Origin: a virus
Strand: one strand, 5' to 3'
Virus genome (UHGV): UHGV-1738303
DNA length: 14,725 nt
Shown piece after piece: positions 10,630 through 14,175 of this stretch. The notes below the pieces were generated by a model. It was given only the letters and a program-made list of their open reading frames with translations, searched no databases and was not told where the DNA came from. Positions within the stretch are counted from its first letter, which is position 1; each line of letters starts with the position of its first letter. Position numbers and translations under genes: made by a program.

Positions 10630-11145
10630 ATGTATCTGTCAAACCTGAAACGTTCTGCTGCAATGTCAGTGTTAAGACTCAGTTTTGATGAGCGTCAAGA
10701 GTTTATAGACTCCCACAAATATGACCCTTCAAATTCTAATCACATGGTTCTTTGGAATCGTGATAACTTCCGTGAAAGAGCACTTGTCCGTTATTACCCA
10801 CACTACACAATAGATAACCTGTATGAATGGTGTGTTGTGAAGAACACCATTGCAACACTGAACAATCTTTGCAGGTATACGGGTAAGCAAACATTTACAT
10901 TAGGTCATCACAAACCTGTTACAAAAGGTGGTGAACATCACTGTGCAAACTGGTTTATCCAAACTAAAGCTGATAACCAGAAGCAAGGAGATAGCCTCCT
11001 AAGTATCCCTAAGATGACCTATGAAGAGCAAGAGAAATATATCAAAAATAATATGCCAGATGTGCTTGACAACAACTATACAGATTTGGCAATATCTCTC
11101 CTGTTGAAGTTCGAGACAGTTTATAGGGCAACTTATAATGGCTAA
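10630..11145 (+). CDS. HNH-family endonuclease (possible free-standing homing endonuclease)
   Basis: 171 aa; HNH-like core CRYTGKQTFTLGHHKPVTKGGEHHCANWFIQTKADNQKQGD (His-His pair, GG, Asn ... Asn); GGAGA 4 nt upstream of the ATG. Confidence 0.65.
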   Translation: MYLSNLKRSAAMSVLRLSFDERQEFIDSHKYDPSNSNHMVLWNRDNFRERALVRYYPHYTIDNLYEWCVVKNTIATLNNLCRYTGKQTFTLGHHKPVTKGGEHHCANWFIQTKADNQKQGDSLLSIPKMTYEEQEKYIKNNMPDVLDNNYTDLAISLLLKFETVYRATYNG

Positions 11146-11416
11146 AGAAAAGTGGGAGATTTTACCATTAGTCAGTGAAGGAGGTAATGGTTGTGAAATG
11201 TACATGATACGTGGTCATGTTCCAGAGCCAATTGCACTTGAGATGGTAAACAACTTTACAGATGGTTCTTACAAAGACTTAGGCGAACCAACTGTCAAGC
11301 AACAATGGGTTAAACCTGTACCAGACAGCACAGGTAACTGTAGTGTACTTTATCACGTTGTAGACCCTGCAAAATGCAAATCTGCAATGGCAGTAACAAA
11401 CGTAACTTTTGATTGA
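11138..11416 (+). CDS. Hypothetical protein
   Basis: 92-codon ORF overlapping the HNH stop by 8 nt; its TGA stop forms part of the TGAGAGAGA motif preceding the next gene. Confidence 0.45.
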   Translation: MAKEKWEILPLVSEGGNGCEMYMIRGHVPEPIALEMVNNFTDGSYKDLGEPTVKQQWVKPVPDSTGNCSVLYHVVDPAKCKSAMAVTNVTFD

Positions 11417-11427
11417 GAGAGAAAACT

Positions 11428-12309
11428 ATGAAAACATCTATCCGTGTTACAGTTCATTCACCAACTAAAGGAACTCATGAAGAAGAGTTTAACATCATCC
11501 AATTTCCTTCTGGTGAGATTGGTGGACACTTTTCGCCAGAGTTTGTTGATTTCACTGCTTATGCAGCATCATCCATCAACAATGTGATTATGATTGTAAA
11601 AGGTTATGATAAGGATACATTGTTTGCTGTGGCACTTGCTAAAGAAGCAATTGATGATTTAATTCCTCATGATTATGCTTTAAAGACTGTCATCTTTTAC
11701 TACTTACCAAATGCACGTTATGACCGTCACATGTTTAAAGGCGACGCAGCAGCTTTAAAGGTTTTTGCTAAACAGGTAAATGCAATGGGATTTGGTGCAG
11801 TCTGTGCAGTTGACCCTCACAGTTACGTTCCAGATAACCTGTTTAACTGCTTCCAGAGTATTCCTCAAAAGGAGATTGCAGTCCACTATGCAAATGACCC
11901 ACTGGTTGATTACTTAGTAGCCCCAGATGCAGGTGCTGCTAAGAAGGTTGCAGAGACCGCTAAAGAGGTGGATAAACCATATATCACAATGTCTAAGGTG
12001 CGTAACCTTAAGACTGGTGAAATTACTGGTATGCGAATCCTTGATGATGTTGATTTGACAGATAAAACCGTCATGATTCTGGATGATATCTGTGATGGTG
12101 GTCGAACCTTCATAGAAGCAGCTAAGCATCTTCGTGAAGCAGGTGCAAAACGTGTGGAACTCTATGTAACACATGGTATCTTCTCTAAAGATGTTGAAAA
12201 CCTTCTTGACAATGGCATTGACCACATCTACACTACAAACTCTTTAGGGGAAGCTAAAGACCGTGGCTTAACACATTATGGTCAAGTTACTGTAGCAAAC
12301 CTTGATTGA
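11428..12309 (+). CDS. Ribose-phosphate pyrophosphokinase (Prs) family protein, divergent; candidate ADP-ribose pyrophosphokinase (Adps-like) of an NAD+ reconstitution pathway
   Basis: 293 aa from the ATG at 11428 (track TTG at 11413 rejected). Prs-family blocks: YLPNARYDR (cf. PYFGYARQDR), VDPHS (cf. VDLHA), VAPDAGAAKKVAETAK, VMILDDICDGGRTFIEAAKHLREAGAKRVELYVTHGIFS (cf. [38 protein letters not shown]). The ribose-5-phosphate loop reads DGGRT rather than canonical DTGGT, and the GFFD motif is missing. Confidence 0.85.
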   Translation: MKTSIRVTVHSPTKGTHEEEFNIIQFPSGEIGGHFSPEFVDFTAYAASSINNVIMIVKGYDKDTLFAVALAKEAIDDLIPHDYALKTVIFYYLPNARYDRHMFKGDAAALKVFAKQVNAMGFGAVCAVDPHSYVPDNLFNCFQSIPQKEIAVHYANDPLVDYLVAPDAGAAKKVAETAKEVDKPYITMSKVRNLKTGEITGMRILDDVDLTDKTVMILDDICDGGRTFIEAAKHLREAGAKRVELYVTHGIFSKDVENLLDNGIDHIYTTNSLGEAKDRGLTHYGQVTVANLD

Positions 12310-12318
12310 AACTTTATA

Positions 12319-12339
12319 GGGGCTTAAAAGCCCCATTTT
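12319..12339 (+). terminator. Hairpin (weak intrinsic terminator) between the Prs-like and NAMPT-like genes
   Basis: GGGGCT (12319-12324) / taaa / AGCCCC (12329-12334), followed by ATTTT. Confidence 0.5.
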
Positions 12340-12354
12340 GAGAGAGATTAAAAG

Positions 12355-14136
12355 ATGACTAAATCACTTTATGCAGTACCAGCAGGTTTAAATGCAGATG
12401 CTTACAAATCTGGTCATGTTTACCAGTATCCTAGCGCAACAGAGTACTTGATGTTCAATCTGACACCACGTAGCGACAAATGGTTTAACAGCCCCTTAGC
12501 AATTGACGGTGTAGTAGCTTTTGGTATTCAACGTTTTGTTAAAGATTACTTGATAGACCACTGGAATGCCACTTTCTTTGAACGTGATAAAAAAGAAGCA
12601 ATTGACGAAATCTTAGAAGTCATGAATGGTGTTCTGGGTAAAGATGCTATAGGTCGAGAGCATTGGGAAGCACTTCACGACTTAGGCTATCTACCAGTTG
12701 AAGTATACGCTGTAGAAGAAGGCACAGTTGTCCCTATGCGTGTTCCGATGATTGTTTTCCAGAACACTGTTTCAGGTTTCCATTGGGTAGCAGGTTATCT
12801 GGAAGATGCTTTCTCTGCTGAGATTTGGAAGGCTTGTACCATTGCAACTATTGCATTGCACTACAAACGTATCTGTAAGAAGTGGGCTGACCTTACTTGT
12901 GACAACGACTTGCATTTACCTTATCAGTGCCATGACTTTGCTATGCGTGGTATGTCCGGCTTTACTGATGACGCATTTAACGCTGTAGGCCACTTAACCA
13001 GCTTTAAAGGAACTGATAGCTTTCCTGCTGTGTATACGGCTAAACGAATCTATGGACAGTCCTACCCAATCTCTGATATTGGTAGCTCTGTACCAGCCAC
13101 TGAGCACTCTGTAATGTGTGCAAACATTGCTTGGGAAGGTGGTAATGAGTTGATTGAAGAAGAAAGACGCTTTAAAGGTGAGTTACAAACCTTCCGTCGT
13201 TTCTTAACAGAAACTTACCCAACGGGTATTGCAAGTATTGTTTCAGATACTTATAACTTCTGGAGAACTGTGTCAGAAATCTTACCAGCACTCCGTAAAG
13301 AAATTATGGAACGTGACGGTAAGCTGGTAATTCGCCCTGACTCTGGAGACCCTGTACATATTGTCACAGGTTACAAAGCAATCCACTTAGAGTGTGCTAA
13401 AAAGGCTTATTACGAGCACCTAAGCAAGCTAGAGGCAAGTGATACAATGCTGAACTCTGTCCTGAACATGAAGCTTGAAAACATTAACTATGGTATTGCT
13501 GGATGGCTACTGTCAGAAGGCTACGAAATGGTTGTTGACAGAGAAGACTTTGAAGTTGCTGATACGGTGATGTTGAAGAATGCTTATATGGTTGGTTCTG
13601 CAAACGTTGTAACACGTCCTGTAGCTGAGATTGATGGGGCTATTAAGACACTGTATAACATCTTTGGAGGAACTATCAACTCTAAAGGTTTTAAAGTACT
13701 GGATGAGCATATCGGGCTTATTTATGGCGACTCTATCACGTTGGAACGTGCAAACGAAATACTGAAGCGTTTGTATGAAATGGGTTTTGCAAGCTCTAAC
13801 GTAGTGTTTGGTGTAGGTTCTTACACTTACCAGTACATGACTCGTGACACCTTTGCATTTGCTGTCAAAGCAACTCTTGCAAGCATTGGTGGTAAAGAGA
13901 TTATGCTTGCAAAAGACCCTAAAACAGATAGTGGTGTTAAGAAGTCTGCTTTTGGTGGTGTAGCACCTATGTGGGATGGTGAAAATCTGAAAGCTGTAGA
14001 TGGCTATGGGTTCCAGAGCTTTGCAGATGCACTTGAACACCCAGCTTGTGCTTTGCGTCTAGTCTTTAGCGACTCTGAGCAGTTCGGTTACACAACTCTT
14101 GGTGATATTCGAAATAATATTGACAAGCAGCTTTAA
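12355..14136 (+). CDS. Nicotinamide phosphoribosyltransferase (NAMPT/NadV) family protein, long form; candidate nicotinamide ADP-ribose transferase (Namat-like)
   Basis: 593 aa; NAMPT blocks LNADAYKSGH (cf. LATDSYKVTH), HDFAMRG (cf. HDFGYRG), SFKGTDS (cf. NFKGTDT), VPATEHS (cf. VPAAEHS), IVSDTYN (cf. VVSDSYD), VIRPDSGDP (cf. IIRPDSGNP), LIYGDSI, FGVGS. About 100 extra residues relative to typical 470-495 aa NAMPTs, apparently inserted between the RPDSGDP and GD motifs. Confidence 0.88.
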   Translation: MTKSLYAVPAGLNADAYKSGHVYQYPSATEYLMFNLTPRSDKWFNSPLAIDGVVAFGIQRFVKDYLIDHWNATFFERDKKEAIDEILEVMNGVLGKDAIGREHWEALHDLGYLPVEVYAVEEGTVVPMRVPMIVFQNTVSGFHWVAGYLEDAFSAEIWKACTIATIALHYKRICKKWADLTCDNDLHLPYQCHDFAMRGMSGFTDDAFNAVGHLTSFKGTDSFPAVYTAKRIYGQSYPISDIGSSVPATEHSVMCANIAWEGGNELIEEERRFKGELQTFRRFLTETYPTGIASIVSDTYNFWRTVSEILPALRKEIMERDGKLVIRPDSGDPVHIVTGYKAIHLECAKKAYYEHLSKLEASDTMLNSVLNMKLENINYGIAGWLLSEGYEMVVDREDFEVADTVMLKNAYMVGSANVVTRPVAEIDGAIKTLYNIFGGTINSKGFKVLDEHIGLIYGDSITLERANEILKRLYEMGFASSNVVFGVGSYTYQYMTRDTFAFAVKATLASIGGKEIMLAKDPKTDSGVKKSAFGGVAPMWDGENLKAVDGYGFQSFADALEHPACALRLVFSDSEQFGYTTLGDIRNNIDKQL

Positions 14137-14150
14137 AAGTATATGATAAG

Positions 14151-14175
14151 AGGCTCCTACGGGAGCCTTTTTAAT
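14151..14175 (+). terminator. Intrinsic terminator hairpin after the NAMPT-like gene
   Basis: GAGGCTCC (14151-14158) / tacg / GGAGCCT (14163-14169), followed by TTTTT; the stem is the arm-swapped relative of the hairpin at 2062-2080. Confidence 0.65.

Follow-up and report, generated by a model that had tools for sequence, protein, structure and literature searches.

NARP1 (NAD+ reconstitution pathway 1) is a recently discovered, widespread counter-defence of phages, in which Adps is the first enzyme and Namat the second. The enzymes have been named from work on phage Bas63, where the deletion of genes 79-80 has revealed that these genes counter SIR2-HerA and where ADP-ribose pyrophosphate (ADPR-PP) has been found in infected cells; the in vitro part of that work was conducted with the homologs from SpbetaL1 (Osterman et al., bioRxiv 10.1101/2024.02.11.579819). 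In an independent knockout screen, the deletion of either g79 or g80 alone has led to a 1e4-1e6 loss of plating efficiency on Sir2-HerA cells, which is restored by complementation (bioRxiv 10.1101/2024.10.10.617714). SpbetaL1 Namat makes NAD+ and prefers ADPR-PP (bioRxiv 10.1101/2024.02.11.579819; PMC12774641); its structures (PDB ID:9W5W and PDB ID:9W5X) have been described (PMC12774641), as has the crystal structure of Adps (PMC13586617). Here, we have analysed a 14,725-nucleotide stretch of the virus genome UHGV-1738303, referred to as "the window", and in particular its open reading frame (ORF) of 593 amino acids (aa), which we assign to a Namat that carries, in a single loop, a large insertion that SpbetaL1 Namat lacks. 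Many Felixounavirus genomes (FelixO1-like myoviruses of E. coli and Salmonella) match the window at 96-99% DNA identity, and we identify its source as Felixounavirus on these matches.

The product of the 593-aa ORF is 98% identical, over its whole length and with the insertion included, to gp80 of Escherichia phage JohannRWettstein (Bas63; protein P0007 of our homolog set), and in a phmmer search against the PDB sequences it matches the 491-aa SpbetaL1 Namat (PDB ID:9w5x, E=5e-128, ~38% identity). Because of the identity with Bas63 gp80, the signature of the selectivity-clamp helix (SCH), the conserved contact residues and the adjacent adps gene, the sequence identifies the product as a Bas63-type Namat, i.e. 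the ADPR-PP-dependent NAD+ synthase of NARP1, and not as a nicotinamide phosphoribosyltransferase (NAMPT/NadV) that uses phosphoribosyl pyrophosphate (PRPP). The original prediction had described a NAMPT-family enzyme with a Prs-like partner: the family membership holds, but the SCH signature and the Adps neighbour mark a Namat and not the PRPP-type NAMPT/NadV of NARP2, no NMNAT-like ORF has been seen among the window ORFs that were scanned, and the upstream gene is better read as encoding Adps than Prs. The upstream product matches the Pfam families Pribosyltran and Pribosyl_synth as well as phrog_619 (E=1.6e-96), and for 76 of the 80 related viral loci from IMG/VR the retrieved flanking sequence (up to 2.5 kb) contains an Adps homolog. 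In the proposed mechanism, Adps would convert ADP-ribose and ATP to ADPR-PP, and Namat would combine ADPR-PP with nicotinamide and regenerate NAD+, by which NAD+-depleting defences such as SIR2-HerA would be neutralised; catalysis would be carried out by the NAMPT-like core together with the adenine "selectivity clamp", as in the crystallised short-form SpbetaL1 Namat.

The original prediction of a protein ~100 aa longer than usual agrees well with the comparison to SpbetaL1 Namat, in which 102 residues are in excess. The phmmer match to 9w5x occurs in two parts (query residues 5-350 and 427-585 against chain residues 3-329 and 329-485), which indicates one discrete gap. Relative to 9w5x, 77 of the 102 extra residues are located in the loop between the invariant residues G339 and G428, 15 are located after His251 and 4 in the β1-β2 loop; the N-terminus, the C-terminal domain and the tail contribute the remaining ~6, about two apiece. 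In an alignment of 71 sequences, the loop between G339 and G428 is 88 aa long here, 11 aa long in SpbetaL1 Namat and 11-20 aa long in all the homologs of 488-502 aa; the second site, which directly follows the catalytic histidine, has 21 aa here against a baseline of 7 aa, and 5-45 aa across the homologs. The extra length thus forms one discrete and one minor insertion in the alignment instead of being divided among many small loops, and the insertion that had been predicted between the RPDSGDP and GD motifs is essentially a single one. Its C-terminal boundary (…FKVLDEH), on the other hand, had been placed ~25 residues too far: the real end is located at ~D427, and the segment GAIKTLYNIFGGTINSKGFKVLDEH, which had been counted into the insert, belongs to the conserved core and aligns to GLIEVLWDIFGGNVTDKGYKVLDPH of 9w5x. 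A 593-aa protein of this kind recurs in more than 200 Felixounavirus-like phage records, so the insert is not an assembly artefact. The extra ~100 residues would represent lineage-specific additions to two loops that follow the barrel strands of domain B.

The whole-protein AlphaFold2 model, which is based on the 71-sequence alignment, has a predicted local distance difference test score (pLDDT) of 94.2 and a predicted template-modelling score (pTM) of 0.92; for residues 340-427 the pLDDT is 93-97, while it falls to 82 around residues 261-270 of the second insertion. Superposed on 9w5x, the model gives a template-modelling (TM) score of 0.95 when normalised by the target and of 0.78 when normalised by the query, the former value indicating that the core is unchanged. 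The predicted elements of the insert are a strand (342-344), three helices (345-358, 363-370 and 379-387), two strands (392-395 and 401-406), a helix (407-413) and a last strand (418-422). When the insert is folded alone with AlphaFold2, from 23 insert sequences, the pLDDT is 94.5, the pTM is 0.83 and the elements are exactly those that are found in context; the same confident fold alone and in context points to a self-contained module that has an internal sheet and ends that lie together. The insert is thus confidently predicted as a compact, self-folding α/β module, the arrangement to be expected of a domain inserted in a loop.

Where the module lies with respect to the active site can be approached through the sheet order of the barrel, β6-β12-β11-β8-β7 (PMC12774641), where the RPDSG strand corresponds to β8 and the adjoining YGD strand to β11. 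Since these two strands are neighbours and the equivalents of D459 and S460 touch AMP, the insert is expected to exit on the catalytic face, at a distance of one loop from the pocket entrance, and by its topology it appears to be mounted on the rim of that face. The module is net acidic (pI 4.8; 14 D+E against 8 K+R), with conserved aromatic and acidic positions at Y340, G389-Y390-E391 and E397.

The residues that form the active site of SpbetaL1 Namat are found at equivalent positions in the window protein. D15, Y17, F195, R198, D221, H251, R327, D329 and G458-D459 are invariant and align to SpbetaL1 D13, Y15, F189, R192, D215, H245, R306, D308 and G360-D361, respectively, and S460 aligns to A362; in SpbetaL1 Namat, R306 and D308 form contacts with the ribose, while G360, D361 and A362 form contacts with the NMN ribose and with the phosphate and ribose of AMP (PMC12774641). 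The SCH of Namats follows the consensus GS-X-phi-X-phi-X-phi-TRD, in which the X positions are aromatic, and the selectivity-clamp loop (SCL) supplies the residue that stacks on the adenine, which is either the Arg at position 3 or the residue that follows a Lys or Tyr; for Bas63 Namat, the fourth residue of the SCL, here W43, has been proposed for this role (PMC12774641). K42-W43 of the window protein align to R40-V41 of SpbetaL1 Namat. All the residues that are listed for 9W5W as contacts of nicotinamide, NMN and AMP are conserved here, and all of them are located outside residues 340-427. As a separate observation, the enterobacterial homologs P0065-P0118 (Klebsiella, Cronobacter, Kosakonia, Erwinia and others, on contigs up to chromosome size) are 495-496 aa long, share 46-49% identity with the query in local alignments and also have the GS[YF]TYQYxTRD signature next to a short, 16-aa loop; signature and loop are consistent with bacterial NARP1-like systems (PMC12774641).

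Our search for relatives of the insert has been conducted with its sequence, its profile and its model. The insert alone gives nothing usable against Pfam and the PDB sequences, the only hit being DUF4528 with E=0.06, far below the cut-off of that family; the Foldseek search of the insert model against BFVD gives no match below E 0.29, and no nucleotide-binding fold has been detected by the Pfam and fold searches. The insert profile has five matches among 1.84 billion representative proteins, of which two are Namat members and three are very long proteins (1880-3292 aa); among the latter, the one inspected, P0121, was rejected as spurious, as it is highly repetitive and its score is the sum of 15 weak repeat matches. 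No relative of the insert has been found outside Namat, an absence that is weakly supported, because the library seemingly has no Felixounavirus representatives. A homolog search with the insert alignment has returned only P0125, missing even known members; P0125, from another assembly, reads as a 54-aa frameshifted fragment, which covers the insert region of a Felixounavirus-type Namat.

The comparison of phage Namats has revealed that the site of the insertion is variable. The RPDSG-to-YGD spacing could be measured in 79 of the 80 IMG/VR loci, a sample that is biased to relatives of the long-form query, and ranges from 44 to 173 residues, with 53 in SpbetaL1 Namat and 130 here. Among these loci, the hidden Markov model (HMM) of the insert matches only those that are Felixounavirus-like, which answers in the affirmative the question, raised in the original prediction, of whether an alignment with phage homologs would reveal a lineage-specific insertion. 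Other lineages have unrelated inserts, for example a ~90-aa family with ...TPHG...RYDKQYY..., for which the hhalign comparison with the Felixounavirus-type insert gives a probability of 0.8% and only a 14-residue helix (LExAK...) in common. In a neighbour-joining tree of the core columns only, close neighbours differ abruptly in loop length (12, 90, 65, 34 ...), and one large clade, which includes the Ounavirinae, is expanded both at the loop after RPDSGDP (site 1) and after the catalytic histidine (site 2); the low-identity phage matches that are typical of NARP2-type Nampt, and all the solved NAMPTs, are short. Within the Namat clade, the loop after RPDSGDP is identified from these sequences as a hot spot of insertion, where phage Namats repeatedly carry unrelated inserts of 10-130 aa.

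The ratio of nonsynonymous to synonymous substitution rates (dN/dS; Nei-Gojobori method) within Felixounavirus and PC79-13 is 0.015-0.13 for the insert and 0.012-0.15 for the core, values that place the insert under purifying selection within Felixounavirus. Against the phiSUSP1-like proteins, the core is 83-87% identical and the insert only 42-49%, with its synonymous differences saturated; Nei-Gojobori estimates are rough at this divergence. PC79-13, which is classified as a Suspvirus, has the Felix-type insert, and in P0028 a site 1 of the Felix type occurs together with a site 2 of the phiSUSP1 type; these patterns suggest that the alleles of the module are old and exchangeable, rather than products of steady drift. 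Along the namat gene, the synonymous divergence (dS) between the window and PC79-13 (Salmonella phage, L081) is 0.76 over codons 1-254 and 0.09-0.39 over the rest, an unevenness that points to recombination inside namat among the Ounavirinae. An insertion of another kind occurs in the homolog P0064 (843 aa), where ~310 aa are located inside RPD/SGD, between ...VVRPD and SGTPED, at the position that corresponds to residues 329/330 of the window protein (nt ~13339-13344); this insertion begins with Cys, ends with ...VVISGN, contains an IQADG (LAGLIDADG-like) block and has the look of a true intein, homing endonuclease included, that interrupts the catalytic motif.

With respect to its role, we consider it probable that the module is an accessory of the Felixounavirus Namat of NARP1, most likely a structural buttress of the rim or of the dimer interface that tunes stability or substrate access; at either place, the module would adjust the reaction and not enable it. 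We infer that the module is accessory and not catalytic because the short SpbetaL1 Namat is active and ADPR-PP-selective without it, and because none of the contact residues is located in it. Some considerations weigh against this proposal: the biochemistry rests on the short SpbetaL1 enzyme and not on the Bas63-type long form, a low dN/dS is to be expected for any folded insert in a protein that is needed and does not prove a specific function, and further determinants outside the active site have been inferred (PMC12774641), leaving room for peripheral elements. The original prediction had suggested that the extra domain shapes the donor pocket or docks the Prs-like partner, and neither suggestion finds support, given the selectivity of SpbetaL1 Namat without the insert, the location of the contacts outside residues 340-427 and the occurrence of similar Adps beside short-loop Namats. 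A module that forms part of the donor site, as an extra wall or lid that contacts the ADP/adenine of ADPR-PP or the leaving pyrophosphate and changes affinity or specificity, seems unlikely to us: the module does follow the RPDSG strand, next to the YGDS strand whose D361/A362 equivalents touch the AMP phosphate and ribose, it has the conserved aromatic and acidic positions mentioned above, and further determinants outside the active site are inferred in PMC12774641, but the strong preference for ADPR-PP is already present in the short form, the unrelated inserts of 10-130 aa in other phages do not easily fit a precise contact with the ligand, the net acidic character is unfavourable for phosphate binding and a nucleotide-binding fold has not been detected. 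Slightly less likely still is a protein-protein surface that docks the Adps hexamer for the hand-over of ADPR-PP, or that docks another lineage-specific protein of the phage or the host. The adjacency and probable co-transcription of adps and namat would suit such a surface, as would the conservation within the genus combined with the abrupt divergence between sister lineages, which fits a co-evolving interface, and the weak correlation between the lengths of the Namat insert and of Adps (Spearman 0.37, p=0.001, uncorrected for relatedness); yet SpbetaL1 Adps and Namat do not co-purify (PMC12774641), the Adps proteins that are most like that of the window also occur beside short-loop Namats (12 aa in L079, 35 aa in L053 and 38 aa in L011), and Adps has no large indel to match.

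Two further explanations concern the variable site. The site could be a cassette that receives interchangeable, independently folding modules, the Felixounavirus one being an interface that co-evolves with a lineage-specific partner, e.g. by docking the Adps hexamer and channelling the labile ADPR-PP, or by blocking a host factor that senses or inhibits Namat; we regard this as doubtful, to about the same degree as the share in the donor site, although it would add, if true, an unrecognised layer to the NAD+ arms race. A variable surface that hides or alters the epitope of a bacterial factor, which senses or inhibits Namat, would explain the turnover of the inserts and agrees with the hypervariable length and sequence at one surface site across phage Namats, with the two divergent insert alleles on similar cores and with the reassortment of site-1 and site-2 variants (P0028); it is nevertheless improbable, since no host factor that targets Namat has been found in the literature examined, the selection on the module within Felixounavirus is purifying and not diversifying, and such variable loops are common in enzymes that take no part in an arms race. 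A remnant of a mobile element (a mini-intein or a homing-endonuclease fragment) or an artefact of annotation or assembly might be suspected from the intein of P0064, located 10 residues upstream, and from the HNH endonuclease genes that occur next to namat in some relatives. The insert, however, starts with YKAIHL, without an initial Cys, Ser or Thr, and ends with VAEID followed by G, without a terminal His-Asn and nucleophile; it has no Pfam match, is only 88 aa long and is located in a variable loop, its frame is continuous and the 593 aa are kept in hundreds of genomes, it folds with the core at high confidence, and the gene is functional in Bas63. An insert of 88 aa is also shorter than any functional mini-intein that is known to us. 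We have rejected the intein or mobile-remnant origin, which has a negligible probability in our estimate, on the missing intein features, the continuous and conserved frame, the confident fold and the functional Bas63 gene. The accessory buttress is, among all these, the explanation that we prefer.

The coordinates of the features are listed in the table. The window contains a block of nucleotide-metabolism genes, i.e. a MazG-like ORF, NrdA, NrdB, NrdD, NrdG and several small ORFs, followed by the Prs-like ORF and the 593-aa NAMPT-like ORF. The mechanically called adps ORF begins with the TTG at 11413, overlapping the stop of the upstream ORF; the ATG at 11428 is the likelier start, because it is preceded by GAGAGAG and because the resulting length of 293 aa agrees with the annotation of phage PC79-13, where the homologous coding sequence (CDS) has 882 nt. 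The same GAGAGAG, which we read as a ribosome-binding site, also precedes the ATG of namat. The two genes are separated by a gap of 45 nt and are probably co-transcribed, to judge from their arrangement; the strong terminator-like hairpin after namat is the probable end of the transcription unit. Within the gap, at 12319-12339, there is a GC hairpin (GGGGC-TTAAAA-GCCCC, then ATTTT) that is terminator-like, under the threshold of the scan, and that could attenuate or stabilise the transcript.

Table. Coordinates of the features of the adps-namat locus in the window (CDS, coding sequence; SCH, selectivity-clamp helix; SCL, selectivity-clamp loop).
Feature	Position	Strand	Description
adps CDS	11428..12309	+	293 aa from ATG 11428; putative Prs-like ADP-ribose pyrophosphokinase, first NARP1 enzyme
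namat CDS	12355..14136	+	593 aa plus stop; ORF and translation stop-free; nicotinamide ADP-ribose transferase, Bas63 gp80 ortholog
SCL region RSDKWFNSPLAI, aa 39-50	12469..12504	+	alignment to 9w5x
His251 codon	13105..13107	+	invariant column; equivalent to the phospho-histidine of NAMPT and Namat; role from PMC12774641
Second, smaller insertion, aa 255-275 (CANIAWEGGNELIEEERRFKG)	13117..13179	+	directly after catalytic His251; 15-residue gap relative to 9w5x
RPDSGDP motif, aa 327-333	13333..13353	+	alignment to 9w5x; invariant columns
Main insertion, aa 340-427 (YKAIHLEC...RPVAEID)	13372..13635	+	predicted autonomous α/β module
YGDS motif, aa 457-460	13723..13734	+	alignment to 9w5x
SCH signature GSYTYQYMTRD, aa 488-498	13816..13848	+	fits the published Namat consensus
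Terminator-like hairpin	14148..14171	+	10-bp stem plus T run, 12 nt past the namat stop; consensus scan only

Further observations concern the variation of this gene neighbourhood in relatives. In BPS15Q2 (Salmonella phage, L082), an HNH endonuclease gene is located directly upstream of namat; in the window, the ORF at 10630-11145 (171 aa, phrog_3500) has a weak HNH-endonuclease match, and around this block some relatives differ from the window by indels, their matches being broken into 2-6 pieces. The families PHROG 16547 and PHROG 15800 cover Namat in two parts, its N-terminal half (aa 1-320) and its C-terminal half (aa 268-593), respectively, which implies that namat is annotated as two genes (split, frameshifted or interrupted) in some phage genomes. 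PHROG 12872 (547 positions) has matches to both proteins, at positions 49-224 to the Adps ORF (11413-12306) and at positions 236-534 to the C-terminal half of Namat (12355-14133), suggesting that in some phages a Prs-like protein and Namat are fused.

The enzyme and the NARP1 pathway are already known, and the insert is a lineage-specific variant of a known enzyme. It can be recognised in Fig. 4A of PMC12774641, a published alignment that includes Bas63 Namat, and is mentioned neither in the text of PMC12774641, nor in the Osterman preprint, nor in the other literature that we have found on Namat. The structural model of NARP1 comes from the short SpbetaL1 Namat, while the genetics come from Bas63, whose enzyme has an extra domain of ~15% of its mass; should the module influence stability, the access of substrates or the binding of a partner, the conclusions that were drawn from the short form may transfer incompletely to the enterobacterial phages that serve in therapy and in screens of defence systems. 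The hot-spot site also offers a permissive position for the engineering of Namat, e.g. with tags or sensors. If the module is merely a tolerated decoration, the finding is an ordinary one.

The closest known system is Bas63, of the same genus, with the same adps-namat pair and the same insert: gp80 is essentially the same protein in another Felixounavirus isolate. SpbetaL1 Namat has the same fold, conserved catalytic residues, SCH signature and SCL stacking residue, and is also paired with Adps, but its loop after RPDSGDP...CG has 11 aa (DPEAKDELVRK) in place of 88, its catalytic His is not followed by the 15-aa extension, and its SCL has 4 aa fewer. NAMPT/NadV proper, i.e. human NAMPT, the NadV of Haemophilus ducreyi (PDB ID:9KE8) and the phage Nampt of NARP2 (e.g. 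in KVP40), shares the type II phosphoribosyltransferase fold, the head-to-tail dimer, the RPDSG and GD motifs and the catalytic His, but converts PRPP to NMN, has neither the aromatic SCH signature nor an adjacent Adps, and is partnered with an NMN adenylyltransferase (NMNAT); none of the solved structures of the NAMPT family, with targets of at most 489 residues, has an insert at this site. Outside the family, domain insertions in loops that follow barrel strands occur in pyruvate kinase (the B, or lid, domain) and in IMP dehydrogenase (the CBS subdomain), which, as is generally known, also have a self-folding module on the catalytic face of an α/β-barrel, with adjacent termini and the barrel chemistry intact. 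For the modules of pyruvate kinase and IMP dehydrogenase, however, lid or regulatory roles have been demonstrated and the folds are recognisable, whereas the module of the Felixounavirus Namat stands without detected relatives.

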